A DNA stretch of 37,379 nt from an uncultured bacterium (lineage in GTDB: Bacteria > T1Sed10-126 > CAYPTI01): the NCBI GenBank assembly GCA_964413525.1, contig CAYPTI010000004.1:1-37379 (forward strand), in the 5' to 3' direction. Under the pieces are notes generated by a model that saw only the letters and a program-made list of their open reading frames with translations, searched no databases and was not told where the DNA came from. Shown here piece by piece: positions 24,264 to 37,379 of the stretch (positions are counted from its first letter, which is position 1; every line of letters begins with the position of its first letter). Both the position numbers and the translations under genes were made by a program.

Positions 24264-25325
24264 TCACTCCAGAAAATCAAACACTCCGGTCTCGACGCGA
24301 AGTTCGTTTCCGTCGGTGTACATTGCGATGTGACCGGCCTGATCGGTTCGCTGGATCTGAGGCACGTCGGCCGACTCGAGTCGGTCAAGAACGGTCCGGG
24401 ACGGTCCCGGTGGGTTGGAGGTCGAAATTACGGCGTGCTGTGGATCAACCATCCCGAGCAGTTCCTCCGAGGTGGAGGGATGATAGCCGTGCTGACCCAC
24501 CTTCAGCACCTCCGACTCCAGGGTCTCGGCGTAATTCAGGACCAGTTCCCGCTCTCCACCCGGTTCCTCGGCCGGTTCGGTCGGGAGATCGGACATCAGG
24601 AGAAACCGCACGTCTCCATACTGGAGAAACAGAACGTGACTGGCGTCCTCGGGAAGAATGGCCTCGGCATCTCCATGGAGCACCCTGGTTCGAAGCCCGG
24701 CGCCGAGGTCAAGTTCCTGTTGGGGTTCCATAAACTCCTGGGGAACCTCATGTGCCTGAGCCTCCGCCTGGAGTCGGCGGTAGGAAAAGTTTTCAGCCGG
24801 AAACCCGGTCCGGAGGAGCCTTCCGACCTCGACGGCATCGTGGGCAATGAGGTCCGGCTGAGCCCCAACGTGATGGGAAATGGGGACGGTGGTTATCAGC
24901 GTATCAATCCGATCGATGCCGGTCAGCTGGAAGAACGGCAGGTACAGTTCGTAGGCCCAGTCATACGGGGGGACGTCGTCTCCGGAAGGGGTCGAGCCTT
25001 CCCCGCCATCCACCAGCGTGACCCGGTTGTCAGGGGTCTGGATCAATATCCCATCCCCGTACCCGACATCCATGAACACGACGGCCAGTTCCCCCGGCTG
25101 ACGGCCGGGGATCCGTCCATCGGGCTGGACGTTTGCGTCCGTGGGGAGTCCGGAACCGGCTCCCACATACCAGTTTACATAGGTCGGTGCGGCCATGTAC
25201 CAGAGCCACCCGGACAGGGCGAACAGAACCGCTACGAGTATCCAGCCGGTGAGGCTTCCCCCCGCGTCGGACGGGTCCGGATCAGCCGAGGCCGGGGAGT
25301 CAAACTCGTCGAACCGATCACTCAT
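24264..25325 (-). CDS. membrane-anchored ComEC-type MBL-fold protein with degenerate catalytic motifs (probable pseudo-enzyme)
   Basis: 353 aa with a TM helix (WILVAVLFALSGWLWYMAA). Colinear with the 297-1409 protein, but VFMDVGYGDG, TVPISHHVGAQ (replacing HxHxDH), MSDLPTE, KVGQHGYHPSTS and PPGPS replace the metal-binding motifs. Confidence 0.75.
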   Translation of the reverse strand: MSDRFDEFDSPASADPDPSDAGGSLTGWILVAVLFALSGWLWYMAAPTYVNWYVGAGSGLPTDANVQPDGRIPGRQPGELAVVFMDVGYGDGILIQTPDNRVTLVDGGEGSTPSGDDVPPYDWAYELYLPFFQLTGIDRIDTLITTVPISHHVGAQPDLIAHDAVEVGRLLRTGFPAENFSYRRLQAEAQAHEVPQEFMEPQQELDLGAGLRTRVLHGDAEAILPEDASHVLFLQYGDVRFLLMSDLPTEPAEEPGGERELVLNYAETLESEVLKVGQHGYHPSTSEELLGMVDPQHAVISTSNPPGPSRTVLDRLESADVPQIQRTDQAGHIAMYTDGNELRVETGVFDFLE

Positions 25326-25343
25326 CCCCGGTCACAATCTCCA

Positions 25344-26045
25344 TCATTCCACCACGGCCCGACCGCTGATGTCCTCGACGGTGACCGGGCCGATCCCGGA
25401 CACTTCCTGGAGATCGTCGAGATCCTCAAACGGGCCGTTCTCCTCCCGGTACGCAACGATCGCTTCCGCCGTGACGGATCCGATCCCGGTTAACTGGGTC
25501 AGGGTGGACTCGTCGGCGGTGTTTACATTAATTTCTTCCCCGGAGGTGGCCGAATCGCCTTCGGGACACGGTTCGTCCTCGTACTCCTGACCCACCGTAA
25601 AGTGTTCTTGCCAGTCCTCCACGTAGGTTGACCCGATCCCGCTGGCCCCTTCGAGCTGATCGAGACAGACAATCGGGTCGTCCAGCTGATCCCGGAACTC
25701 AATCAGGCTTTCAGCGCGAGATTGCCCGAGGTTTGGAACCCCCGCGTTGGTGAGTTCTTCCAGGGTTACTTCGTTGATGTTTACCTTCCGGGCGTACTCG
25801 ATCTCCGCCCGTCGCCCGGCGTCCACGCGCTCCACGGACAACTCGGTTTCCGGGACAAGGTCCGGGTCGTCCGGCTCCGACCGTTCCGCGGATTCCGCAA
25901 CCCGGTCGGCCGTCCCGGGAGGTCCCTCGCCCTCCATCATAAGCCCCGGGACGGCAAGTACCCCCAGAACGACCGCGATCAGAACCAGCACGTACTGCTG
26001 CGAGTTCACGGTCCAAGCCTCCATTCCGTTCCCGCTGGCCGGCAT
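25344..26045 (-). CDS. comEA: ComEA-type competence protein (TM anchor plus two helix-hairpin-helix DNA-binding modules)
   Basis: 233 aa with a TM helix (YVLVLIAVVLGVLAV). Module 1: KVNINEVTLEELTN...LGQSRAESLIEFR...LDQLEGASGIGSTY. Module 2: INVNTADESTLTQLTGIGSVTAEAIVAYREENGPFEDLDDLQEVSGIGPVTVEDI. Confidence 0.85.
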   Translation of the reverse strand: MPASGNGMEAWTVNSQQYVLVLIAVVLGVLAVPGLMMEGEGPPGTADRVAESAERSEPDDPDLVPETELSVERVDAGRRAEIEYARKVNINEVTLEELTNAGVPNLGQSRAESLIEFRDQLDDPIVCLDQLEGASGIGSTYVEDWQEHFTVGQEYEDEPCPEGDSATSGEEINVNTADESTLTQLTGIGSVTAEAIVAYREENGPFEDLDDLQEVSGIGPVTVEDISGRAVVE

Positions 26046-26046
26046 C

Positions 26047-26079
26047 GTTCTATGTTCGAAACGAACATGTGAACCGAAC
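26047..26079. promoter_or_regulatory. cluster of GTTC/GAAC half-sites including a perfect 7-bp inverted repeat abutting the comEA start codon (candidate operator or RBS-occluding hairpin)
   Basis: ATGTTCG-AAA-CGAACAT lies at 26052-26068. Half-sites are at 26047, 26054, 26063, 26071 and 26076. The comEA ATG is at 26043-26045, and no Shine-Dalgarno sequence is evident. Confidence 0.3.
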
Positions 26080-26244
26080 CAACAAACGCTTCAGATGCCG
26101 ATTGATTATACCAACTACGAAAACAATTCGAGATCCCATAGAAACAGCTAACGATCGGGTACCGAAACGTATGGATACTCGGCCTCCGTCCATTGTTTTC
26201 GTTCAGCCGGAAGCTGACATCCGAGTTGGTTTCGTCTCCCGGTT

Positions 26245-26342
26245 GGGGTGATTGTTCAACGTCTATTCAAGCGGTTCGTGACGATTGGTGTCCCCCGGTT
26301 GGTTCCCGAACGACAAATCAAACTTGACCGGAGCCCAACCGG
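26245..26342. repeat. intergenic repeat element, copy B (between the comEC stop and the comEA start)
   Basis: Blocks: GGGGTGATT (26245-26253), TCTATTCAAGCGGTTCGTGAC (26262-26282), and TGGT plus a 10-nt insertion plus TGGTTC. The 8-bp stem CCGGTTGG (26295-26302) pairs with CCAACCGG (26335-26342). Confidence 0.5.
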
Positions 26343-26370
26343 TCCCATAGCAGTAGACGTGGCCTTCTCC

Positions 26371-26415
26371 TCGACGAGATTCGAAGGTTCCCCGGACGGG
26401 TCGGAACCTCGTCGA
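26371..26415 (-). terminator. long GC-rich hairpin about 45 nt downstream of the comEC stop (possible U-tract-less terminator or RNA-stability element)
   Basis: TCGACGA(G) and GGTTCC on one arm pair with GGAACC and TCGTCGA on the other. That gives 7 + 6 bp with one internal loop and an 11-nt apical loop. No T/U run follows on the minus strand. Confidence 0.3.
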
Positions 26416-26457
26416 CCGGCGGGTCCTCCGTGACAACATCATGGGATGAGAAATCGT

Positions 26458-29400
26458 TTACAACCGAGCGTCGAATGCTTCTCCCTCCTGTTCGGTCACC
26501 ATACCGTTCTCGGTTTCGACAAACGGAGTGATGGACAATTCGTCGCCGTCGGAGCGCACGATTATCGCGTGGTCCCGGTCGGTCCGAAAAAGCTGCCCGT
26601 CATCATACCGTTCTGAAAGAGCCTCCCAGGTCGCGGTGATTTGTTCTTCCATGTCCTCCCCCTGAGGTCCCCGGATGTCGATGCGGTCGGCGGTGGACAG
26701 GACAACGAACTCGGGATCGACGGCGTCGTAAAACGGTTCGTAATAACTTTCCGACGCGGTCCCGTTTGACGGAACGAACAGGACGTCCGCTTCCAGTTGC
26801 CCCGCTCCGTACCGATCAAGCATCCAGTTCTGGGCGTCTTCCCGGATGTCCCCCGGAAGCAGGATCCGGGTCTCCCCGATTTCAACCATCAACACGACGG
26901 ATTCGTTTTCGGCCACCCGGAAGGTGTGCGGGCTTGATTCCGGTGGGTTCAGGGCGGTGATCCGGAAGGGTACCTCCTGCCCGTCAATGGTCAGGGTTTC
27001 GTCCCAGACTACATCTCCCTCCCGAGGACGGTAATACTCCGTTTCCTGTCGCCGGAGGGGTTCCCACATTCGTTTCCAGTTGTGAAAGTAATCGAATCGA
27101 AACCATTGAGCTTCCTGGTTTTCCTCCAGATAGGAATCACCGATGGCCGCCGTAAAATCGTCCAGCGAGGGTGAGGACCCGAGCCGGTCCTCCGGGAGGG
27201 GGCCGATCGCGGCCCGGACCACGAAGTGATTGGCCATGTACCCCATGCCTCCCAGCCGCTGGGGTTCGATCGACTGAAGTCCGAGCAAATCCAGTTCCTT
27301 GATTCCCTGCCTCAGAAAAAAATCCGACACCGCCAGACGGCCCTGATCCCGACGGTCGGGAAGGTTGTCCCGGTGATGCCAGTCCCACTGACGGGCCCCG
27401 GCGTTCAGCAACATGTTGGTTCCCCCGGGGGCCTGGACGGCAACGGCCGATCCGTACCCGACGTTCAGGGCCGTCAGCCGCACTTCCTCCGGCGGTGATT
27501 CGATAAACCAGAAGGAACCGTACAGAATCACTCCCGCCACGGAGAGCACGGCCACGAACGTTTTCGCGGGACTGGTGAGGGGGCGCCCGAGAAATTGACC
27601 CCAGAACCGCTTAAACCCCTCCAGTGAGGGGCGCCAGGCGATGAACAGCCCCAGCGCGCCGTAAAAGACGAGCAAATGCCAGAGGGTAAATTCCCGGACC
27701 GCCGGATAGGGAAACAGTTCAAACGAGAAATGAGACACCCACATGAACAGCCAGACGGCCAGAAAGTTGCCGGCGTTGAGAAGCAGGGCGAGCCAGTGCC
27801 CGACGACCGGAATCAATCCCATCAATCCCGCAAACAACCCGAGGGGAACGACAATCCCCACCAGGGGGATGGCGAGCAAGTTGGCGTAGATCCCCGCAAA
27901 GGGGTACTCGAGGAAGTAATAGGCGCTCAGGGGCCACATCATCCCGAGCTGGACGGCGAACTGGAGTCCGATGAAGTTCCGGAGGCTGGCCGGGATGTCC
28001 AGAAACCCGATTCCCCCCGCGATCCGGTGCCTGCGGTCGACATCAAACGCCCACCAGAACGTAGCCCCCCAGAACCCGAGATAGGGAAGATACACCACCG
28101 GCTGAAGAAACCAGTTCCAGTGGGCCATCAACAGATAAGTGGTGACCGCGGCGACCACCCAGAAAAGGAGGAAACTCAAGCCTCTGAGTTTCTGGAGCAC
28201 CCGGTCCACCGGTCCGCTGAGCAACACGAGGCAGAGCACCGCCGTGAAGGAGAGGGTGAACGACGCTTCGAACACGAGCTGCGGCTGAATCAATAGAATA
28301 ACTAATGCCGCGGCGGACAGTCCGACCATGGCCGAGTTCTTGAGACCCCGTTCGGAGTACGCGAAGACGATCAGAATCAGGGCCGTCATGATAAAGGCTC
28401 GCTGGGTGGAGGGACGGGCCCCCGTGAGGATGGTAAAGATCAGCAGAAGCACGACGATAAGGGGAGCGTAAATTTTTTTCGGCAGCCTGAGCCCGGCAAA
28501 CAGAGCCCAGAACGCTCCCGCCAGCACCCCGACGTGAAGCCCGGAAACCGCAAGCACGTGCATGGTTCCGGCGCCGCGGAACTCCTCGTTTACCAAATTT
28601 TTGAGAAAATTTTCTTCATGGCTCCGTACGTACTCCGGGATCTCCCCGGTTTGAAAGGGACTGAGGGTGAAATCCAGCCCCTCCCTCAATCCGAGCGTGG
28701 CCCCGCCCAGAAAGGCGGAATACGGGTAGGGCATGGTTTGCTTGATGACCTTCAACATCTCCGTTTGAAGCCCGAGGGCCCAGGCCACCATCCGATTGCC
28801 GGTGTTTTCCTCCAATCGCTCTACGTCGGTGGCAAACCACATGGCTCCGTAAATCCCCTGGTTGTGAAGAAACTGCTGGTAATCAAACCCATGCGGGTTG
28901 GTCCGGGGCATCGGTTCACTGATCGGGCCGGTGAACCGAAGCCGATCGGCGTAAATGGAGTTATCGGCGGCCTCGGAAAAGGAAAGATCGTGGTCCTGAT
29001 AGGATTGAATCCGGAGGAGCAACTGGCCCCGGTCGACCGGATGGGGCTCCCCCTCCTCTTCATACCGGATCCGTTCGGGTTCAACGGTCAGCGTCACTTC
29101 TCCGTCCTCGGTGACCTCCGGGGCTTCGACCACGGTCCCCTCGACCGTTCGGGGGTCGTCAAACCCGTCGGACAGATGCTCGTCCAGGCTGTTGGGGTAC
29201 AGGTGATCCAGAGCCATCGAATAGCGCCCCCACCCGACCAGGAAGGCAATGAGACCGATGATGCCGAAGACGAACAGGGTCTTGCGCCAGCCAACGACGT
29301 GGAGGACGTAGGCCCCAACCCCTCCGATCAGAACGGACCCGCCAACCGCCCCCCACAGTCCGCTCATTTCCTCCGGAAACAGGGGGAAAAACACGGCGTA

Positions 29401-29472
29401 CACGATGCCGGCGATGAAAGTATACGTGACGATAAGGAGAAGCTTGATCAGCCGATCCTGATCGGGTTTCAC
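26458..29472 (-). CDS. comEC: ComEC/Rec2 DNA-internalisation channel protein, enlarged, with a degenerate C-terminal MBL domain
   Basis: 1004 aa with a GTG start overlapping the upstream stop (GTGA). N-terminal TM helices are followed by an OB-like segment (VEGTVVEAPEV...LTVEPERI...GQLLLRIQ). The multi-TM competence core carries GTMHVLAVSGLHVGVLAG. The C-terminal ~340 aa are MBL-like but lack the His/Asp ligands. Confidence 0.9.
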   Translation of the reverse strand: MKPDQDRLIKLLLIVTYTFIAGIVYAVFFPLFPEEMSGLWGAVGGSVLIGGVGAYVLHVVGWRKTLFVFGIIGLIAFLVGWGRYSMALDHLYPNSLDEHLSDGFDDPRTVEGTVVEAPEVTEDGEVTLTVEPERIRYEEEGEPHPVDRGQLLLRIQSYQDHDLSFSEAADNSIYADRLRFTGPISEPMPRTNPHGFDYQQFLHNQGIYGAMWFATDVERLEENTGNRMVAWALGLQTEMLKVIKQTMPYPYSAFLGGATLGLREGLDFTLSPFQTGEIPEYVRSHEENFLKNLVNEEFRGAGTMHVLAVSGLHVGVLAGAFWALFAGLRLPKKIYAPLIVVLLLIFTILTGARPSTQRAFIMTALILIVFAYSERGLKNSAMVGLSAAALVILLIQPQLVFEASFTLSFTAVLCLVLLSGPVDRVLQKLRGLSFLLFWVVAAVTTYLLMAHWNWFLQPVVYLPYLGFWGATFWWAFDVDRRHRIAGGIGFLDIPASLRNFIGLQFAVQLGMMWPLSAYYFLEYPFAGIYANLLAIPLVGIVVPLGLFAGLMGLIPVVGHWLALLLNAGNFLAVWLFMWVSHFSFELFPYPAVREFTLWHLLVFYGALGLFIAWRPSLEGFKRFWGQFLGRPLTSPAKTFVAVLSVAGVILYGSFWFIESPPEEVRLTALNVGYGSAVAVQAPGGTNMLLNAGARQWDWHHRDNLPDRRDQGRLAVSDFFLRQGIKELDLLGLQSIEPQRLGGMGYMANHFVVRAAIGPLPEDRLGSSPSLDDFTAAIGDSYLEENQEAQWFRFDYFHNWKRMWEPLRRQETEYYRPREGDVVWDETLTIDGQEVPFRITALNPPESSPHTFRVAENESVVLMVEIGETRILLPGDIREDAQNWMLDRYGAGQLEADVLFVPSNGTASESYYEPFYDAVDPEFVVLSTADRIDIRGPQGEDMEEQITATWEALSERYDDGQLFRTDRDHAIIVRSDGDELSITPFVETENGMVTEQEGEAFDARL

Positions 29473-29663
29473 TGCACCGGATCATCTCGTTCACGCGTGG
29501 GATTCTCTACCGAAACCTCGGAAAAATACCGCTGGTTGGACTCGATGATCTCGGCAAACCGGTAGTCCGGGTTCAGGAGGTATACAATGGCTCCGATCAG
29601 GAAGGCCCCGACCACCATGACGAGCAACCATTTGACGTTGCCTCGCTGTTCATCCTCACCCAT
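29469..29663 (-). CDS. small single-pass membrane protein, unknown function
   Basis: 64 aa with one TM helix (KWLLVMVVGAFLIGAIVYLL). Its ATG overlaps the ndk stop by 8 nt, and its TGA overlaps the comEC GTG. Coding status rests on this coupling and on the absence of alternatives. Confidence 0.5.
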   Translation of the reverse strand: MGEDEQRGNVKWLLVMVVGAFLIGAIVYLLNPDYRFAEIIESNQRYFSEVSVENPTRERDDPVQ

Positions 29664-30075
29664 CGATCAAATCACTCTCGGAGAAGAAAAAGCCGATCTC
29701 ACGCTCGGCGCTTTCCGCCGAGTCGGCTCCGTGAATGGAATTCTCGGTGATGCTGCTGGCAAATTCAGCCCGAATGGTGCCGGGAGCCGCATCCTCGGGA
29801 TCGGTGGCCCCCATAATGGTTCGGAGCCTCCGGACGGCGTCCTCCCCCTCCACGACCCCGAGTACTACGCTTCCGGAGGTAATGTACTCAATCAACTCGT
29901 CAAAAAACGGTTTGGATCGATGTTCCCCGTAAAACCGACGGGCCTGGGCGTCACTGATGCGAGTCTTCTCAAGACAGACGATGGACAGTCCATCGGACTC
30001 GATTCGGCTCAGGATCTCACCAACGAGATCCCGTTCAACCGCGTCGGGTTTGATCATCGTGAACGTTCGTTCCAT
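29656..30075 (-). CDS. ndk: nucleoside diphosphate kinase
   Basis: The ATG at 30075 gives MERTFTMIKPDAVERDLVGEILSRIE...FYGEHRSKPFFDELIEYITSG...GATDP..AAPGTIRAEFA....NSIHGADS (active-site His). 139 aa. The track ORF's 32-aa N-terminal extension was rejected. Confidence 0.95.
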   Translation of the reverse strand: MERTFTMIKPDAVERDLVGEILSRIESDGLSIVCLEKTRISDAQARRFYGEHRSKPFFDELIEYITSGSVVLGVVEGEDAVRRLRTIMGATDPEDAAPGTIRAEFASSITENSIHGADSAESAEREIGFFFSESDLIDG

Positions 30076-30304
30076 GATTCTCGCTCCCTCGAAAAACAAA
30101 GTAATGGGTTCGATTAGCAGCCACTGTTGTCCCCCGACCCGGGATCCCGCCTGACCCGTCCGGCCACCCAACTCAGAAATCGTCGAACAAGGGTAATGGG
30201 CTGTCCGGGGGAGGACAATGTCCCCCCCGAAGAAACGGCACGACTGAGCTGGTTTTCCCGGGATGGGGGCGACCCGTCACCTCAAGGAGGATCCTGCGCC
30301 AACA

Positions 30305-31504
30305 TTACCCGCTCTCGCCCAGTTCCGATTCACCCTGAGCGATCTGAAAAGCATTATAAAGTAAGTCCCCGGTCATCTGAGCAACCAGACGCAGTTTCAG
30401 TTTGTCCGCGTTGCCCAGCTCCTCCCCGGTTTCTTTTTCCGTCGCCCGGATAACCCCGATGGTTTTCCCCCGTGAACGAATGGCCGCCGCCACCCCGGCT
30501 CCCTTCCGGGGACGGTCGATGATGTTCGCCTGGCCCAGTTCAGCAACCGTTCCGACCTCACCCGAACCGATGTCGACCGTGAGGTTCTGAAGCCGGTCGC
30601 GCTCCATCCACTGGTCCTCCTCCAGTCCCATCTGGCCGACAAGCTGATCCGGGTTGTCGGTGGAAACCAGAAACACCATGGTCTGGCGGACCTGAAGCAT
30701 GTTGTAGACCGAATTTACCATGTACTTCAGAAGCGCTTCCGGATCGAGGGTTTCCCCCACCCGCTTGGCGTAATCAATTAATTCAAAGTACTCATCCGGA
30801 GTCAGCGGTCCGGTCGACGTCTCCTCCTTCGCCCGTTCAAGCTTTTCCTCGTATTGGTTCGTGATTTCCGACCGGGCCAGGCTGATCCGGTTCGTGATCA
30901 GATCCTCCCACCGTCGCTGCAGGAACAGGACCACCAGGACGGCGATCACCAGGAGAACGGCGGTACCCAGGGCAAGTTGATTGACGGTGGAATACCAGTG
31001 CCGCCAGAGAAACTCCCGGTCAATCCCGATCATCAAGCCCCCGTAGACGGTACCGTCGGCGGTAACGGGCAGGACGATCTCCCGAACGTCGAGGTCCTCC
31101 CCCTGAACATCCTCACGGGACTCGATCACAAGCCCCTCCGTATCGACAAACCGTTCCTCCTCCAGCATGGACCGATCGCCGGGGGAAACGTCTTCGTGGA
31201 CCGAACTGAGGACGAAGTTCCCCCGATCGTCCAGCACGGCCATGTACGCAATTCCAAAGTCTTCTCGACGGGTGACAAGCTGATCGGTGGCTGTATTTAA
31301 GGTTGTAAAATTGGCCGAAAGGAAGGGTTCAAACAGGGAGTAGGCAATCATCTCACTGACGTCATCTACCGTGTCGGAGGCTCGCTGGCTCGCGGTCTGA
31401 TAGCTGAAGAAATAGGCTGTAAAAGCTAAGAGAAGGATGAGTGCCACAACGAATGCCAGAATGGAATTTCGCACCTGGGAAGCGAGATCCGACCCATCGT
31501 CCAC
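30305..31504 (-). CDS. membrane sensor-like protein: TM, Cache/PDC-like periplasmic domain, TM, coiled linker, GAF domain, no output domain
   Basis: 399 aa with a GTG start 38 nt after the secretin stop. TM1: ILAFVVALILLLAFTAYFF. Extracytoplasmic segment IAYMAVLDDRGNFVLSSV...LPVTADGTVYGGLMIGI is typical of Cache-like sensors. TM2: LALGTAVLLVIAVLVVLFL. The C-terminal GAF-like block is LDPEALLKYMVNSVYNMLQVRQTMVFLV...VAAAIRSRGKTIGVIRA. I saw no HisKA, GGDEF or HTH motifs. Confidence 0.65.
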   Translation of the reverse strand: MDDGSDLASQVRNSILAFVVALILLLAFTAYFFSYQTASQRASDTVDDVSEMIAYSLFEPFLSANFTTLNTATDQLVTRREDFGIAYMAVLDDRGNFVLSSVHEDVSPGDRSMLEEERFVDTEGLVIESREDVQGEDLDVREIVLPVTADGTVYGGLMIGIDREFLWRHWYSTVNQLALGTAVLLVIAVLVVLFLQRRWEDLITNRISLARSEITNQYEEKLERAKEETSTGPLTPDEYFELIDYAKRVGETLDPEALLKYMVNSVYNMLQVRQTMVFLVSTDNPDQLVGQMGLEEDQWMERDRLQNLTVDIGSGEVGTVAELGQANIIDRPRKGAGVAAAIRSRGKTIGVIRATEKETGEELGNADKLKLRLVAQMTGDLLYNAFQIAQGESELGESG

Positions 31505-31542
31505 GTCAGATCACCCGGCGTTCCCGGGACCGAAGATGACGT

Positions 31543-34500
31543 TCAACGATTCGATTCAGTCTGGGTATCCCGTTCCACCGTTACGTTCACGTCCCGTTCA
31601 ATCTCTCCGTTATCGCTTGTATCAGACTCCAGTCCCTCCTCGACGTTGGCGGCCGTCCGGGGAGTAATGTCTTCCCCGTCGTTCGCCGAGGACGCCTCGG
31701 CACGGTCACCGGAGGGATCGTAGTTCTCGCCCGACGGGACGGTTTCGGCCTGCGTTCGCGATTCACCGGAATCCAGAACCATGACTTCCTGCAACACCGA
31801 ATCGATGTAATCGGAATCTACGCCCCGGTCGATCAGAAGGTTCCGGACCACGTCAAAGTCCTCAAACCGAATTCTCAAATCTCGCTCGTGAGAGAGGTCG
31901 GTGGCGATTTGAGCGTCAATGTGACGGACCCGGCTAAGCTGCCGGGGAGTGGCCGAGTTCACGGGGATCGACAGTTCGACCCGATCCATGATCTGCTCCA
32001 AAACGAGCGGGTCCACGCCGGGCAACCTGAGCAGATCGCTGAGGCTCGTGAAGGGTCCGGCGTTTCGTCGGTAATCATCGGCCGCCGCCGCCAGCTGCGC
32101 CGGGTCGGAGGCGTCGCTCAGGCTGAACAGCCGCTCCAGTTGTTGGAAGGAATCGGTGTTCACGTTGACCGACAGTCCGCTGCTGAACTGAGCCTCCTCG
32201 CCGATCCGTTCCTCGGCCAGTCGATCGACTTCCTCCGCCTCCTCCATGACGTGGGGGGTGAGAAAGACGACCAGTTCGTTCTGGACAACATCCTCCGAGT
32301 AGCTGCTGAACGCGTGTCCCAGCACAGGGATGTGACGCAGGAAGGGAACCCCGGTTTCCTGGATCTCGACGTCGTCCTGGATCAACCCGCCGACCACGAT
32401 CGTTTGGCCGTCCTCCACGTACAGTTTGGACTGACTGGAGCGACTTTCGGTGGTGAGGGTTTCCTCCTGGGGACTAACGAATATTTCGTTGATGATGTTC
32501 AGGTTCAGCAACACGTCCCGGCTCTTGGTGATGGTAGGAGAAATTTCCAGCACGGTCTCCGCCACCACCTCGGTCAGCGTGGTGGTCACCACTCCTCCTT
32601 CGGAGACTTCCGTCTCCTCGGCGAACCGGGTCTCCTCCAGCCGAATCACGCCCTGCTCATTGTTCAGGGTGGAGATCTGCGGCCGGGCCACGATTTCGCC
32701 GTCAAGGTCTTCTTCCAGGAAGTCAAGGATGACCTGGAGGTCCTCCTGCTGGAAAAGACCGGTGAAGACTCGATCCGCAAACTGCGGGAGCGCAGGATCC
32801 GCTGATACGTCGGGACCGCCGGGGCTAGGACCGGTGGGGGGATCCGAACCAAACTCAACCCGCAAGTCCTCATTCAGGTAGTTCCAGAAGGGGTTGAACT
32901 CGAATCCCTCCTCCAGGTCATATTCGGCCAGTACCCCTTCGACGTAGACCTGCTTGGCCCGGACGTCAAATTGCTTGATCAGGTCCCTCACCATCGACCG
33001 GTTGTTCCTCGGCGTGGCAAACACCACCCGGTTCAGGTCCGGATCGGCGGTGAGTGAGACGTTAATGTTCAGATCCTCCACCACCTCGGACGTCCGGGTG
33101 ACGAGATCCTCGGGCCCGTCGGTCGGACCTTCCGGCGACGGAAGGGCTCCGCGTTCGGCGTCGTCGTCCAGCAGGCCCGAGATCACGTCAACCACGTCGT
33201 GGGCTCTCCGATAGTTCAACTCCACGTGACCGATCGTGTACCCCGACTTATCAATTTGCTCCAGAAATTGCCGGGTCTCGTCCTGACGGTTTGAAGGCAC
33301 CAGGAGGGAAATCCGGTCGGGGGTGACGTGAAGCAAAGTCGCGTACTGGAGTTCGTCCAGCTGGTCCTCAAGATCCTCGGCGTCCAGGTTGGTCGGAAAA
33401 TACGTGATGACGGAATGATCGAAAAAGGCGTTGCTGTCGAGTTTTTGAATGATCTCGCGCAGCATCGACGCATCGGAGGGCTGCAGGGAAAAGACCGCCC
33501 GCAGTTCGTCCGAGTATACGACACGGGGAAGAGCCCGTTCCCGTTCGAGGGTGTCGTCGATGTTCTGGAAGTACTCCTCCAGTTCGCCGACCAGGGTGGA
33601 CACGTCCACGAACTGGGGGGAGTACACCACGATCTCCCGACCCGACTGATCGATCTCGGTGGAGTCGAGCCGGGACATGATCTCGCGGAACTCGTCGATT
33701 TCCTCTTTCGTCGACGAACGCAGGAGCAGAAGGTTCCGTTCCGGGATCGCCGTCTCCACGTCCACGCCCGGGAACCGTCCGACAAACGAGTTGACCCGTT
33801 CCACGCCGAGAACCTGGGCCGGATACCACTCCCAGTAGTAGTCCTCCAGCTCAACGTAGGAGTCCTCGATCTCCTGGATGATCTCCCGGGCGAAGGAACG
33901 GAAGTTGCTGGGACCGATCAGCATGATCGTGTCGGTTTCTTCAAGGATGATGGCATTCATCTGGGTAACCACTTCTTCGAGGTTGGCGGCATCGGTTCCT
34001 TCGGTCTCTTCCTGGGGAGCAAAGAAGAAGACTTCCTCAGTCTCATCAACGTCCTCCGCCACCCCGATGATCTGGTTGAGCTTCTCCAGCACCACCGACG
34101 GATCGGCTCGTTCGATTTCAATCAGGTCATACGAGAAACTTGAGAGATCGGACGAATCGATCTGGTTCAGCTGGTTGAGGGCCGACTCAAGGGCCTCCTG
34201 TTCCGGGGACGATAGAAGGAAGGCGTCAAGGTATTCAATCGTGCTGAACGTCTGGACGTTGCCCATCCGGTTGATCAGCGATTGGGTTTGTTCAAACGGA
34301 ATGTTTTCCGCCTGATACCACTCAAACTTCTGCCGGTCCATGTAATCGAGGCCCATCTCCTGAATCCGTTCGATCATGGCTTCGGCCGTGTCCAGAAGGT
34401 CGGGAGACCCGAAGATCAGAATTTGCTGCAGTTCGGGGATGGCGATGATCTGCCCTCGTTCAAGGAGCTGTTCAATATTGACCTGCCGTTCCTCCTGGAT

Positions 34501-36840
34501 GATCTGACGGATTTCGTCCGGGTCGGGGTCGGTAAATGTGAGATCCCCGATATTCACGCCGGTGGTAATGTCCATCCCCAGGATTCGGTTCACCTGGGCG
34601 GCGATCTGTTCGGCGTCGAAGCCCTCCATGTCAATAAACCGGAAGTTCTCCTGCAGCCGGCCCGGCTGATCCATGATCTCCACCAGCTCGACCACTCGTT
34701 CGACCATCGCGGTTTCTCCGTACACAACGATCTCATTGGTCCGGGGGTGGCTGATAATTCGTCCTTGTTCCCCGAGGGGAAGATCCGACCGCAGACGGTC
34801 CGCGAGATCGTCGTTGTTGATCGAAAGAGCCTCGTGCTCGAGTTCAATAACCCGGTATTCAAACCCCTCGTACACCCCCCGCTGGATGGCTTCCTCCCGA
34901 GCGACCACCGTAACGACGTCCTCGTCCATGACCCTCGCAAATCCCTGGGTTTCCAGGATGGTGTCCATGGCCCGAAGCGGCGTGACGTCCTCGAGGTGAA
35001 CGGTGACCGAGCGCTGTTCGTCATCGGCCTCCAATTCCTGAAGGACCAGGTTGATGTTGGAAATCTCCGCCAGGGTTCGAAGAACGTCCGAAAGGGGCGC
35101 GTCCTGAAGAGAGACGCTGATGACGTTCGGCCGGCCGAAGATCGTGAAGGTGGTGGAGGGTTCGCCCTCGATTTCCAGCAGGGACGCCCGAACCTCGTTG
35201 ACCTCCCGATCCGGGGCAATTCGGTAGACATCCACTTCCACCCGACCGTCGTCGTTTGTTTCCTGGCGCCGGCTGAGGCCCGGCTGGACCTCGTTTACGT
35301 CCAGAAAAGCGCCCCGGGTCAGAGATTTAAAGGTGACCATGACGTCGGGGACCGGGTTCCCGAACCGGTCCTGAACTTCAACCATCATTGGATTCGGAGG
35401 CCGCTCGCCGAACAGGGTCTCCTGCCGATCTCCGGCGACCGTCTGGATGTCAACCGGTTCGGCCGCCTCTACCTCCAGCCGGTAGTTCACCAGGAGATCG
35501 TATTCTTCCACGGAAGCGACGATTTCAACCGGTCCGGAGGTTTCCTTCGATCGGGCATGGAACCGAACGCGACCGTCTTCATCGGTTCGTAACTCCAGCG
35601 ATTCCCCCTGAAATTCATCCGGCGATTCACCCAGTTCTACGTCTCCATGACGAACGGAAACCTCCACCCGTTCGTCGTCCAGCGGTTCCCCGTCCTCGTC
35701 CACGAATTCGGCGATCATGGGATCGGAGGTCTCCCGGGGGATCCCGAGCGACTGACCATGGCCTTCGACCCGCTGAAGCTGGTAATACAGATCGGGGTGA
35801 ACCTGCCGGAAGATGTCCTCAATCTCCGGATCCTCGTCCGCCCCGGGGAAGATCTCCTCCACGTCGAAGATGTCGATAACGACACGATTACCCGGGGTGT
35901 CACGGTAAATTTGAAAATTGTCATGCCACTGTTCCAGGTCCAGGACCACGCGGGTCGTATTAATGGGATCCACCCGGTACTGACTGTGGCGCACCCGGAT
36001 GACGTCCTTCAGCTCGATGGGAAGGGGGGGGTCGGGAAGAGCATTGAGGGCGTTCGGGATGTCAATTACCAGCATGGCCGGATCAAAAATTTCCGACACC
36101 ACGTAATCAAGGGAGCGCGATCCCCGGATCGAGATCCGGACTCGGTCGGGATACTCCCGGGCTTCCACTCCGTACACGGCTCGGGTCCGACCCTCCGGTT
36201 GATCGTAATCCGTCCGAACATGACGAATTACTTCGGAGGGTTCGGCCTGGATCTCAGGGGGTTCCTTCGGCGCTTCCTGATCGTCCACGGTCGCGAACGG
36301 AGAATCCGGACGAACCTCCGCCGGATTCTGGACGGACCCCAATTGAATGTCGTTGGGATCCTCCCGATCCGCCAGCTCCCCAAGCTCCTCTTCGGCTTCT
36401 TCAGCCGCCTCATCCTCGGGAAGGTCAACCAGCTCCTCAAGGGTCTCACGAAGCTGTTGAGCCTGGGTATGGTCGGGATCCTCATCCAGAGCCCGACGAA
36501 CCCGATCGAGAGCCAGATCGTATTCTTCGTCAATAAAGTGGTTGACTGCCTCGGAGTAAAAAACCTCGGCCGAAGTCCCTTCCTGGGCTTGTTGCGTTTC
36601 CTGCGCCTGAATGGCCGTTGGATGGAAAAAGAACGTTAAACAGAACAAACTCGCGAGTAGCCCCACGAGCAAAAACAGGGACGAATATGAACCCCCGGGC
36701 GTTGTACGGTGGAATAATACCAATCCGATGGCTCCCTTCGGCTTCGTCAATGGTGCCTTCACCGATACGGAATCAGCCCCGGTGGAGGCGTGTTTCCCGG
36801 CCGCTTGTGCGGCTCGTGTGGTCATCACAATTGTCGCCAT
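31543..36840 (-). CDS. pilQ: giant type IV pilus / competence secretin (PilQ-like) with TPR-like, AMIN, Ig-like, STN/N0 and about 8 ring domains, a secretin core and C-terminal ComEA-like HhH modules
   Basis: 1765-aa ORF. Hydrophobic signal-like segment LFLLVGLLASLFCLTFFF..AIQAQ. AMIN-like: RVRISIRGSRSLDYVVSEIFDPAMLVIDIPNA...TRVVLDL. Two Big_1-like beta domains: MMVEVQDRFGNPVPDVMVTFK...DDGRVEVDV. N0/STN: ISVSLQDAPLSDVLRTLAEISNINLVL. Repeated Secretin_N-like units: ...PRTNEIVVYGE...VELVEIMD. Secretin core: IVARPQISTLNNEQGVI...GQTIVVGGLIQDDVEIQETGVPFLRHIPVLGHAF...ELVVFLTPHVM. Start uncertain: a TTG at codon 40 behind AAGGGAG is an alternative. Confidence 0.85.
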   Translation of the reverse strand: MATIVMTTRAAQAAGKHASTGADSVSVKAPLTKPKGAIGLVLFHRTTPGGSYSSLFLLVGLLASLFCLTFFFHPTAIQAQETQQAQEGTSAEVFYSEAVNHFIDEEYDLALDRVRRALDEDPDHTQAQQLRETLEELVDLPEDEAAEEAEEELGELADREDPNDIQLGSVQNPAEVRPDSPFATVDDQEAPKEPPEIQAEPSEVIRHVRTDYDQPEGRTRAVYGVEAREYPDRVRISIRGSRSLDYVVSEIFDPAMLVIDIPNALNALPDPPLPIELKDVIRVRHSQYRVDPINTTRVVLDLEQWHDNFQIYRDTPGNRVVIDIFDVEEIFPGADEDPEIEDIFRQVHPDLYYQLQRVEGHGQSLGIPRETSDPMIAEFVDEDGEPLDDERVEVSVRHGDVELGESPDEFQGESLELRTDEDGRVRFHARSKETSGPVEIVASVEEYDLLVNYRLEVEAAEPVDIQTVAGDRQETLFGERPPNPMMVEVQDRFGNPVPDVMVTFKSLTRGAFLDVNEVQPGLSRRQETNDDGRVEVDVYRIAPDREVNEVRASLLEIEGEPSTTFTIFGRPNVISVSLQDAPLSDVLRTLAEISNINLVLQELEADDEQRSVTVHLEDVTPLRAMDTILETQGFARVMDEDVVTVVAREEAIQRGVYEGFEYRVIELEHEALSINNDDLADRLRSDLPLGEQGRIISHPRTNEIVVYGETAMVERVVELVEIMDQPGRLQENFRFIDMEGFDAEQIAAQVNRILGMDITTGVNIGDLTFTDPDPDEIRQIIQEERQVNIEQLLERGQIIAIPELQQILIFGSPDLLDTAEAMIERIQEMGLDYMDRQKFEWYQAENIPFEQTQSLINRMGNVQTFSTIEYLDAFLLSSPEQEALESALNQLNQIDSSDLSSFSYDLIEIERADPSVVLEKLNQIIGVAEDVDETEEVFFFAPQEETEGTDAANLEEVVTQMNAIILEETDTIMLIGPSNFRSFAREIIQEIEDSYVELEDYYWEWYPAQVLGVERVNSFVGRFPGVDVETAIPERNLLLLRSSTKEEIDEFREIMSRLDSTEIDQSGREIVVYSPQFVDVSTLVGELEEYFQNIDDTLERERALPRVVYSDELRAVFSLQPSDASMLREIIQKLDSNAFFDHSVITYFPTNLDAEDLEDQLDELQYATLLHVTPDRISLLVPSNRQDETRQFLEQIDKSGYTIGHVELNYRRAHDVVDVISGLLDDDAERGALPSPEGPTDGPEDLVTRTSEVVEDLNINVSLTADPDLNRVVFATPRNNRSMVRDLIKQFDVRAKQVYVEGVLAEYDLEEGFEFNPFWNYLNEDLRVEFGSDPPTGPSPGGPDVSADPALPQFADRVFTGLFQQEDLQVILDFLEEDLDGEIVARPQISTLNNEQGVIRLEETRFAEETEVSEGGVVTTTLTEVVAETVLEISPTITKSRDVLLNLNIINEIFVSPQEETLTTESRSSQSKLYVEDGQTIVVGGLIQDDVEIQETGVPFLRHIPVLGHAFSSYSEDVVQNELVVFLTPHVMEEAEEVDRLAEERIGEEAQFSSGLSVNVNTDSFQQLERLFSLSDASDPAQLAAAADDYRRNAGPFTSLSDLLRLPGVDPLVLEQIMDRVELSIPVNSATPRQLSRVRHIDAQIATDLSHERDLRIRFEDFDVVRNLLIDRGVDSDYIDSVLQEVMVLDSGESRTQAETVPSGENYDPSGDRAEASSANDGEDITPRTAANVEEGLESDTSDNGEIERDVNVTVERDTQTESNR

Positions 36841-37155
36841 TCCAGTTGTTTGGCTGGTCCATCATGAATCGGTCTTCAAATTGAAGGGGTTTCATCATAA
36901 TCTCTGCACCTGATTAGATCGAGACCCCTCCGTGGCAATGTCCGTGTGAACATCCTGACTAAAAATAGAGAAGTTTGACAAAAAACACAATACACGCTCC
37001 AAATTCGAGAATCTTTTCAGTTGACCACCCCGCCTCGACCCGTTTCGGTTTCCGAACAGGCAGGGGAGGAAAACGTCCGGAAGAACCGATCACGGGGTTC
37101 CCGTTGCTTGCGGACGGGAGGTGAATGGGGAAGGCTCGGGTTTAAGTCCAATCAA

Positions 37156-37379
37156 CTACTGAAGTCGAATTCCTTCCTCGATCCGTTGCCGAACCCGATC
37201 GGTCTGGAATTGAAACAACGTTGTCTTGTAATCCGGGTGCGACAGCCAGACCCCGGTGTCACTGATGGTTTCGGCCCGGATGTCGGATTCTCCAACGAAT
37301 TCTCCCACCCCGACCCGATAGGTTTCCCCCGAGGATTCTTCCCGGACCAGAGCCTGGCGGACGTCCTCGGCCCCGAAGA
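37156..37379 (-). CDS. PilP-like pilus assembly protein, C-terminal fragment; the gene starts beyond the right edge
   Basis: Open minus-strand frame entering from the right edge, ending at TAG 37156-37158. ...ALVREESSGETYRVGVGEFVGESDIRAETISDTGVWLSHPDYKTTLFQFQ resembles the PilP C-terminal beta-domain pattern (..ALV....G..hRV.vGdylG...g.V..I....i.l). It sits immediately upstream of the secretin, as in pilMNOPQ operons. Confidence 0.5.
   Translation of the reverse strand, partial: FGAEDVRQALVREESSGETYRVGVGEFVGESDIRAETISDTGVWLSHPDYKTTLFQFQTDRVRQRIEEGIRLQ

Follow-up and report, generated by a model that had tools for sequence, protein, structure and literature searches.

A family of giant PilQ-like secretins with ComEA-type helix-hairpin-helix modules at the C-terminus

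We analyzed a 37,379-nucleotide stretch of DNA from an uncultured bacterium of the T1Sed10-126 lineage (contig CAYPTI010000004.1 of assembly GCA_964413525.1, hereafter the window), which encodes a giant secretin carrying two helix-hairpin-helix (HhH) modules of the type found in ComEA. The gene lies on the minus strand (31543..36840) and encodes 1765 amino acids (aa) from the first ATG, in which Pfam finds AMIN, Big_1/MG4, STN, three Secretin_N, Secretin, and HHH_3 domains. From the N- to the C-terminus, the protein consists of an AMIN domain, an immunoglobulin (Ig)-like region, N0/STN, Secretin_N, and Secretin, beyond which a linker of 23 residues leads to two ComEA-type (HhH)2 modules and a final acidic tail. 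An earlier note, made from the letters of the window alone, had proposed that such modules are fused to the secretin, and the peptides that it quoted for the secretin end and for the two units are indeed found at the positions given, within this single open reading frame (ORF). Both tail units are homologous to the (HhH)2 domain of ComEA, and it is essentially certain that their fusion to the secretin is real and conserved in relatives. Rather than being unique to the window, this fusion is conserved in a small, rare family of giant PilQ-like secretins. The earlier note knew of no described secretin of this kind, and our full-text literature search likewise found no description of a secretin with a ComEA-type HhH tail: the parts, a PilQ-type secretin and a ComEA-type (HhH)2 domain, are known, and it is their combination for which we found no description.

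The secretin core ends with the peptide ELVVFLTPHVMEE (residues 1522-1534, 32277..32239) and is followed by an acidic linker (residues 1535-1557, 32170..32238, minus strand) that occupies the position of an S-domain. Unit 1, a ComEA-type (HhH)2 module, covers residues 1558-1621 (31978..32169, minus strand; peptide VNVNTDSF...EQIMDRV). Unit 2 is a more diverged module of the same type at residues 1625-1690 (31771..31968, minus strand), with the peptide IPVNSATP...VVRNLL at residues 1625-1669 (31968..31834). The range 31789..32169, to which the fusion had been assigned, corresponds to residues 1558-1684. The remainder of the protein, residues 1691-1765 (31546..31770, minus strand), is by its composition an acidic low-complexity extension and is probably disordered.

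Unit 1 passes the Pfam HHH_3 profile (PF12836, gathering cut-off 27 bits) with 37.7 bits in the context of the whole protein (residues 1557-1621, E 2.3e-9) and with 34.8 bits when scanned alone, and a profile of the unit 1 family matches the ComEA profile at 98.8% in hhalign (E 4e-17). Unit 2, scanned alone, stays below the cut-off (13.5 bits, E 0.08), but a profile built from eight family members matches the ComEA HhH profile at 98.2% (E 5.6e-14), and Pfam finds two HHH_3 stretches in each of the orthologues P0047, P0079, and P0088 and three in P0058. The earlier note's reading of two ComEA-like units is supported. In BLASTP comparisons with the window's own ComEA, unit 1 shows 34% identity over 68 residues (E 6e-9) and unit 2 31% over 39 residues (E 0.019). 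A profile search of the PDB with the tail family returned, besides the HhH domain of EEPD1 (3.8e-14) and Tex (1.6e-4), the ComEA proteins of G. stearothermophilus (1.5e-8) and B. subtilis (5.4e-6). The secretin as a whole does not pass the ComEA profile TIGR01259 (24.1 bits, cut-off 152.35).

The alignment of seven tails (alignment A1) has 22 invariant columns, among them those for the N-x-N cap in each unit, for the (Y)R..GP connector within unit 1, and for the glycine in the last hairpin. Unit 1 bears, in its first hairpin, an insertion relative to ComEA that is common to the family; it measures 8 residues when the family profile is set against ComEA in the PDB search and 8-10 residues in the orthologues, and is shorter in the window. 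Unit 2 has a 3-residue insertion ahead of its second hairpin. With the seven-sequence alignment, AlphaFold2 (AF2) predicts an all-helical tail with a mean predicted local distance difference test (pLDDT) score of 68, reaching 74-92 over unit 2, and, at low confidence, a helix in the linker (positions 14-28 of A1, pLDDT below 50); on the single sequence the prediction was uninformative (pLDDT 47). A Foldseek search of the AF2 model against the PDB gave no significant match (best E 0.32), and its top neighbors, none of them significant, are HhH domains, namely those of TEFM, Tex, ComEA (8dss, root-mean-square deviation 2.6 Å over 60 columns), XcpX, and KIF22.

The conservation of the secretin varies by region. 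When the window protein is compared with its orthologues, the AMIN domain is the best conserved region (47-50% identity), the bulk of the protein shows 29-35%, and the HhH units show 25-37% (32-37% for unit 1 alone), whereas the linker and the C-terminal extension fall to 13-18% and 12-22%, respectively. Since the identity of the two units matches that of the bulk of the protein while that of the linker and of the C-terminal tail is lower, the units are maintained as folded domains.

The possibility that a frameshift or a misassembly had merged two genes, one for a secretin and one for a ComEA-like protein, or that the resemblance is mere chance, had to be considered for a metagenome-style contig whose tail, taken alone, returned no match in a protein homologue search. 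Nothing that we found supports these ideas. The tail has a GC content of 0.68/0.42/0.72 at the three codon positions, compared with 0.68/0.36/0.72 for the gene as a whole (at position 3, 0.72 overall and 0.83 in unit 1), and both alternative frames of the tail region are closed by stops, which leaves a continuous coding signature and no sign of a sequencing error that merged two ORFs. An exhaustive search of representative proteins with the 161-residue tail returned long proteins with one aligned stretch spanning both units near the C-terminus; the full-length matches are P0047 (1613 aa, locus L002), P0079 (1612 aa), P0088 (1651 aa, locus L001), and P0058 (2126 aa, L011 10001..16381), and P0052 and P0061 are fragments. 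The secretin and its two-unit tail form one ORF in at least four independent contigs of metagenome-assembled genomes (MAGs), L001, L002, L007, and L011, as well as in further proteins, so that the tail is not a separate gene in relatives. With this architecture recurring in independent assemblies from different samples, a continuous coding signature, and profile E-values from 2e-9 to 4e-17, we regard an artefact as extremely improbable; both the merged ORF and the chance similarity were rejected on the independent orthologues, the closed frames, and the profile-profile matches.

The orthologous giant secretins are 28-33% identical to that of the window and share its domain content in Pfam (AMIN, Big_1, N0/STN, Secretin_N, Secretin, and HHH_3), the AMIN domain being found in P0047, P0058, P0079, and P0088. 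At the junction they read ...ELV[IV]FLTP[HR]V..., then the linker, then QQITPxP[IV]NLN..., and then the two units. A genome scan with the full-length family alignment (A3) found the secretin on six MAG contigs, one of them from 'bacterium isolate T1Sed10_126', the namesake isolate of the phylum T1Sed10-126, which is among the MAGs with both the orthologous secretin and its gene cluster; the same scan also drew one unrelated Phycisphaerales secretin. The corresponding metagenome scan with A3 added one JGI contig that carries the secretin. The genome and metagenome scans with the single window protein gave no match. In the protein homologue search, the last 665 aa returned distant GspD-like secretins only (at about 27% identity and all lacking an HhH Pfam domain), and the family tail alignment A1 returned free ComEA proteins only, the same index apparently not reaching the family.

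Besides this conserved family, there is a second group of giant secretins (P0072, P0078, P0082, P0087, P0100, and P0115), up to 3242 aa long, in which the barrel is followed by four HHH_3 repeats separated by proline-rich linkers. In P0111, an N-terminally cut member, three HHH_3 repeats were found, and P0082 is RMH57684.1, a 'hypothetical protein' from a Candidatus Hydrogenedentota MAG. The tail repeats of this group are related to unit 1 (hhalign 99.3%), and its operon follows the same logic as that of the window's group: PilM, PilO, a 214-aa gene, a large Ig protein, an HhH-tailed secretin, and a homologue of the 399-aa gene that follows the window secretin. Unlike the window secretin, complete members have 2500-3200 aa, their four repeats sit on proline-rich linkers and are closer in sequence to ComEA, and a conserved segment of about 60 residues separates the barrel from the repeats. 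Within the window's own family, P0058 carries, after two diverged units and a Pro/Ala-rich linker of about 200 residues, a third module at its extreme C-terminus (VDINTASTEDLMKLPGIDEYRAKMI...). Because this third module is canonical and ComEA-like and lies beyond a long linker, HhH modules seem to have joined these secretins more than once. The presence of such modules in at least two deep lineages suggests that DNA-binding sites at the channel are useful enough to become fixed.

The best reading of the window secretin is that it is of the PilQ type, that is, a secretin of a type IV pilus, given its AMIN domain and the pilM/pilO context in relatives. AMIN domains are typical of PilQ secretins of type IVa pili. 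The alternative is a type II secretin (GspD) whose tail would serve protein secretion or act on extracellular DNA or biofilm, the proximity of comEC and comEA being coincidental. Among the NCBIfam profiles the best match is indeed GspD (TIGR02517, 219.7 bits) rather than PilQ (TIGR02515, 148.9 bits), but both scores remain below their cut-offs (351.35 and 284.35, respectively). Distant homologues are also annotated as GspD, and in the second group comEC and comEA do not adjoin the secretin on the Hydrogenedentota contig. Nevertheless, the secretin carries an AMIN domain, and in the relatives its gene sits downstream of PilM_2, PilO, and a 214-233-aa gene, the window contig ending before pilM and pilO would be reached. 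The linkage to comEC and comEA persists between genomes even though their secretins share only about 30% identity, and the C-terminus is expected in the periplasm, not at the surface. No gsp genes (C, E, F, G...) were found in the window or in the flanks of L001, L002, L010, and L011 (6.9-10 kb upstream and 2.7-10 kb downstream). All in all, a type II secretin appears quite improbable, and the PilQ-type assignment is kept below.

In the window's group, the secretin is embedded in a DNA-uptake cluster. In L001 and L002 (from gene tables) and in L007 (from tblastn), the genes follow one another on one strand in the order histidine kinase, sigma-54 response regulator, PilM (long form), PilO, a 214-233-aa gene in the position of pilP, an Ig-like protein of about 1000 aa, the secretin, a 397-399-aa gene, ndk, a 53-64-aa ORF, comEC, comEA, and a 341-353-aa gene. 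From the secretin onward, the window has the same order and orientation; the Ig gene is absent, and the contig ends within the gene in the pilP position. The identities between the window and these relatives are 40-41% for the 399-aa gene, 52% for ndk, 48% for comEC, 30-34% for comEA, and 44-46% for the 353-aa gene. On the Hydrogenedentota contig (L010), the order is PilM, PilO, a 214-aa gene, a 1204-aa Ig protein, the secretin, and a homologue of the 399-aa gene.

Pilotins have been described to bind the C-terminal region of secretins, and C-terminal extensions to form radial arms that lie either in the periplasm or at the level of the inner leaflet (PMC3276575). As secretin C-termini leave the barrel at its outer rim, facing the periplasm, the tail modules most likely surround the channel on that face rather than lying inside the pore or at the cell surface. 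The earlier note had placed them right at the pore. With two modules on each subunit and 12-15 subunits per channel, as is usual for secretins, we infer that roughly 24-30 HhH modules are tethered in a ring just below the outer membrane. A retracting pilus would pull double-stranded DNA through the channel, the modules would bind it without sequence preference and hold it against back-diffusion, and they might then pass it to membrane-anchored ComEA and on to ComEC, both encoded a few genes downstream. We lean slightly towards the first part of this proposal, that the tail modules bind DNA and have a role in uptake, judging from sequence and gene order. The full scheme, a periplasmic DNA relay with two stations encoded in one supercluster, in which the module ring tethered to the outer membrane, with two modules per subunit in the window secretin and four on long proline-rich tethers in the second group, would capture DNA before it reaches inner-membrane-anchored ComEA and ComEC, is more tentative.

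ComEA binds DNA by way of its HhH motifs, with backbone amides and a conserved lysine making the contacts (PMC9747964). In favor of DNA binding by the tail, the units are basic in the non-halophilic orthologues, with isoelectric points (pI) of 10.7 and 10.8 in P0088, 9.8 for unit 1 of P0079, and 9.4 and 8.4 in P0052; in the acidic background of the window, each unit has a net charge of -5, compared to -12 for the HhH domain of the window's own ComEA. The linkage of the gene to comEC and comEA and the repeated addition of modules on flexible linkers in relatives likewise speak for DNA binding.

Several observations weigh against this proposal. The G-h-G signature is replaced in all four hairpins of the window tail (SLSDASD, PGVDP, RHIDAQ, and RGVDSD), the first hairpin of unit 1 having no glycine at all (SLSDASDPAQ where ComEA reads GIGSVTA), whereas the ComEA encoded in the same window retains GIG twice (GIGSVTA and GIGPVTV). 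The hairpins of the orthologues mostly keep the first glycine only (GLSP followed by the insertion, PG[IV]T, and G[VIM][SD]). The best conserved DNA-contact residue of ComEA is a lysine, K164 in B. subtilis and K63 in V. cholerae (PMC9747964). This lysine is not conserved in the tails, where the position is occupied by L, I, or R in unit 1 and by I, A, M, or T in unit 2, although the test is weak given that the ComEAs of this clade themselves carry a threonine there. Some HhH-like domains outside the cytoplasm are known to bind protein instead of DNA, as in GspK/XcpX and PsbU, and GspK/T2SSK, XcpX, and PsbU are among the weak Pfam, PDB, and Foldseek matches of the tail. The expected position of the C-terminus outside the barrel wall, and not in the lumen through which DNA would pass, points the same way. 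So do two features of the second group, the separation from comEC and comEA mentioned above and the mostly mildly acidic character of its repeats (pI 4.1-6.8 in 24 of 26, and 8.4 in two), which also pass the T2SSK cut-offs of Pfam.

Several of these features would fit a tail that keeps the HhH fold, no longer binds DNA, and instead binds protein or has a structural role. Such a tail could staple neighboring subunits together, bind a pilotin-like partner in the manner of an S-domain, dock the HhH domains of ComEA or the 399-aa partner, or be a plain structural domain as in GspK and PsbU; for docking, the paired (HhH)2 domains of ERCC1-XPF offer a model. That the tail occupies the site of S-domains and pilotin-binding peptides, and that a conserved gene of the 399-aa type always comes next after the secretin, is consistent with such a function, as are the loss of the canonical GIG and of the lysine. 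On the other hand, the top profile matches are DNA-binding HhH domains (ComEA, EEPD1, and Tex), with scores far above those of GspK and PsbU, the units are strongly basic in non-halophilic orthologues, the linkage to comEC and comEA is conserved, and multiple repeats on long proline-rich linkers resemble a capture device more than a staple. We consider a structural or protein-binding tail less likely, and retain DNA binding with a role in uptake as the slightly favored function.

Compared with the PilQ proteins of Vibrio cholerae, Thermus thermophilus, and Neisseria, which are part of the route taking transforming DNA across the outer membrane, the window secretin shares the C-terminal barrel, the Secretin_N rings, the N-terminal AMIN domain, and, in relatives, the position after pilM and pilO. 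It differs by its size of about 1700 aa, its added Ig-like domains, its many extra N-domains, and a score below the PilQ cut-off of NCBIfam. It is about two to three times larger than the model PilQs. To our knowledge, described PilQs end soon after the barrel, whereas in the window secretin the barrel is followed by two HhH modules and an acidic tail. A survey of type IV filaments noted of the secretins of diderm Firmicutes that they 'lacked distinctive domain architecture' (PMC6668835).

The tail resembles ComEA in its N-x-N cap, its YR..GPF connector loop, its two-hairpin layout without a connector helix, and the expected compartment, the periplasm. It differs in being tethered covalently to an outer-membrane channel, ComEA being free or anchored in the inner membrane, in its degenerate GIG hairpins, and in the insertion in the first hairpin of unit 1; moreover, a separate bona fide comEA is retained in the cluster. 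The S-domains of type II and type III secretion system secretins (GspD, OutD, and InvG) are likewise C-terminal extensions past the barrel, expected at the periplasmic outer rim (PMC3276575). These peptides are short and helical and serve to bind a lipoprotein pilotin or the adjacent subunits, whereas the window tail comprises about 130 residues in two folded HhH modules plus about 75 probably disordered residues.

How transforming DNA is held and passed on once it has crossed the outer membrane is only partly understood, and a secretin with a ComEA tail is a natural experiment in this respect. As far as we know, the way in which ComEA is physically connected to the PilQ channel is not settled. 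In model species, ComEA acts as a periplasmic DNA-binding ratchet (PMC3879209, PMC9747964). If the relay is real, it would be the first outer-membrane DNA-uptake step with a built-in dedicated receptor, and would give a handle on the passage of DNA from secretin to ComEA; if DNA binding has been lost, the tail would be a clean case of a secretin that took up a ComEA domain as a structural appendage. In both cases, the analysis defines an unannotated family of giant PilQ-like secretins and a conserved pilM/O-secretin-ndk-comEC-comEA cluster.

Upstream of the tail, the N-terminal part of the secretin shows a weak TPR-like stretch (Fis1_TPR_C, residues 98-136, minus strand, 19.1 bits, below the Pfam cut-off), followed by the AMIN domain (residues 225-312, 35905..36168, minus strand; PF11741, 30.3 bits against a cut-off of 20.5). 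The Ig-like region (Big_1/MG4, residues 378-542) and STN (residues 609-647), both on the minus strand, are Pfam matches below the cut-off. Three stretches of Secretin_N ring domains (PF03958, 73.6 bits, minus strand) precede the barrel domain, which lies at residues 1375-1532 (32245..32718, minus strand) and matches PF00263 with 113.3 bits (cut-off 27.5, E 1.2e-32). The start of the protein is ambiguous, the ATG at 36840 placing 39 extra residues before a segment resembling a signal peptide. The public gene call (P0042), which is 100% identical over the tail query, starts at a TTG at 36723 and has 1726 aa. This shorter form is preferred because the N-termini of the orthologues agree better with it and because it begins with a plausible signal peptide, and it is probably the true secretin.

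Just before the secretin gene, the contig end cuts the gene in the pilP position, of which the 3' end is left (37152..37379, minus strand); tblastn identifies this fragment as a homologue of the 214-233-aa gene located after pilM and pilO in relatives (E-values from 2e-10 to 6e-7 across L001, L002, L005, L007, and L008). A 1000-1200-aa Ig-like protein, with a faint Big_1 match, separates this gene from the secretin in all four relatives with gene tables (L001 6955..9984, L002 6951..9977, L010 2656..6270, and L011 6837..10004), and L005 and L008 have a gap of fitting size at the same place. In the window this gene is missing, and the interval in its place (36841..37151) is non-coding over about 310 bp and includes an AT-rich stretch. 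In relatives, the histidine kinase and the sigma-54-dependent response regulator precede the pilM-pilO-secretin cluster (L001 1233..2582, L002 1307..2665). A sigma-54 promoter pattern, looked for in the window on account of this upstream activator, occurred at chance level.

The 399-aa gene (30305..31504, minus strand) begins 38 bp after the secretin stop and encodes hydrophobic N-terminal segments; it has no Pfam or NCBIfam match in the window. A homologue follows the secretin in L001, L002, L007, and L010, the last being 29% identical (E 1e-28) with a weak GAF_3 match, and the size of this gene varies from 397 to 446 aa (L001 15223..16416, L002 14879..16075, and L010 15244..16584). Its product may be a dedicated partner or regulator of the giant secretins. 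Further downstream lie ndk, encoding nucleoside diphosphate kinase (29656..30075, minus strand; assigned from its translation and from PF00334 on the syntenic genes of L001 and L002), and a 64-aa ORF (29469..29663, minus strand; 53-56 aa in relatives), which overlaps both the ndk stop and the comEC start. These stop-start overlaps are kept in L001, L002, and L007.

The comEC gene (26458..29472, minus strand) encodes the inner-membrane DNA channel, with 1004 aa, 141 bits for TIGR00361, and 70.3 bits for TIGR00360 (cut-off 36.5). The free-standing ComEA of 233 aa (25344..26045, minus strand) scores 105 bits over two HHH_3 stretches and passes TIGR00426 (95.4 bits, cut-off 53.1), so that it is the bona fide ComEA that had been recognized in the window. 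It has an N-terminal hydrophobic anchor, as the free ComEAs of this group do; its first domain shows a degenerate first hairpin (NAGVPNLGQS), and its second carries canonical GIG hairpins. There are two HHH_3 domains in this protein versus three in L001, L002, and L007 (292-293 aa in L001 and L002). The spacing between comEC and comEA is 412 bp in the window (26046..26457) versus about 35 bp in L001 and L002, and this gap contains no convincing ORF. A promoter and terminator scan of 25000..37379 gave nothing above shuffled background, with no terminator between the secretin and the 399-aa gene, and no Rfam family was found in the window.

The secretin is extremely acidic (E 11.8%, D 9.0%, K 1.0%). 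The window proteins that were checked, secretin and ComEA, are extremely acidic and poor in lysine, and the GC content is about 60%, as in 'salt-in' halophiles. This composition fits the lineage, since the members of the candidate phylum T1Sed10-126, for which the name Ca. Salsurabacteriota has been proposed, are extreme halophiles whose proteomes are acidic (bioRxiv 10.1101/2024.03.10.584303). Within this analysis, the window was placed in the phylum by its similarity to one MAG of that name. The orthologues P0079 and P0088 are not acidic, indicating that the family reaches non-halophilic relatives. The rest of the window is ordinary chromosome, with a trp operon, hisIE, murA, prfB, and a UvrD-like helicase.

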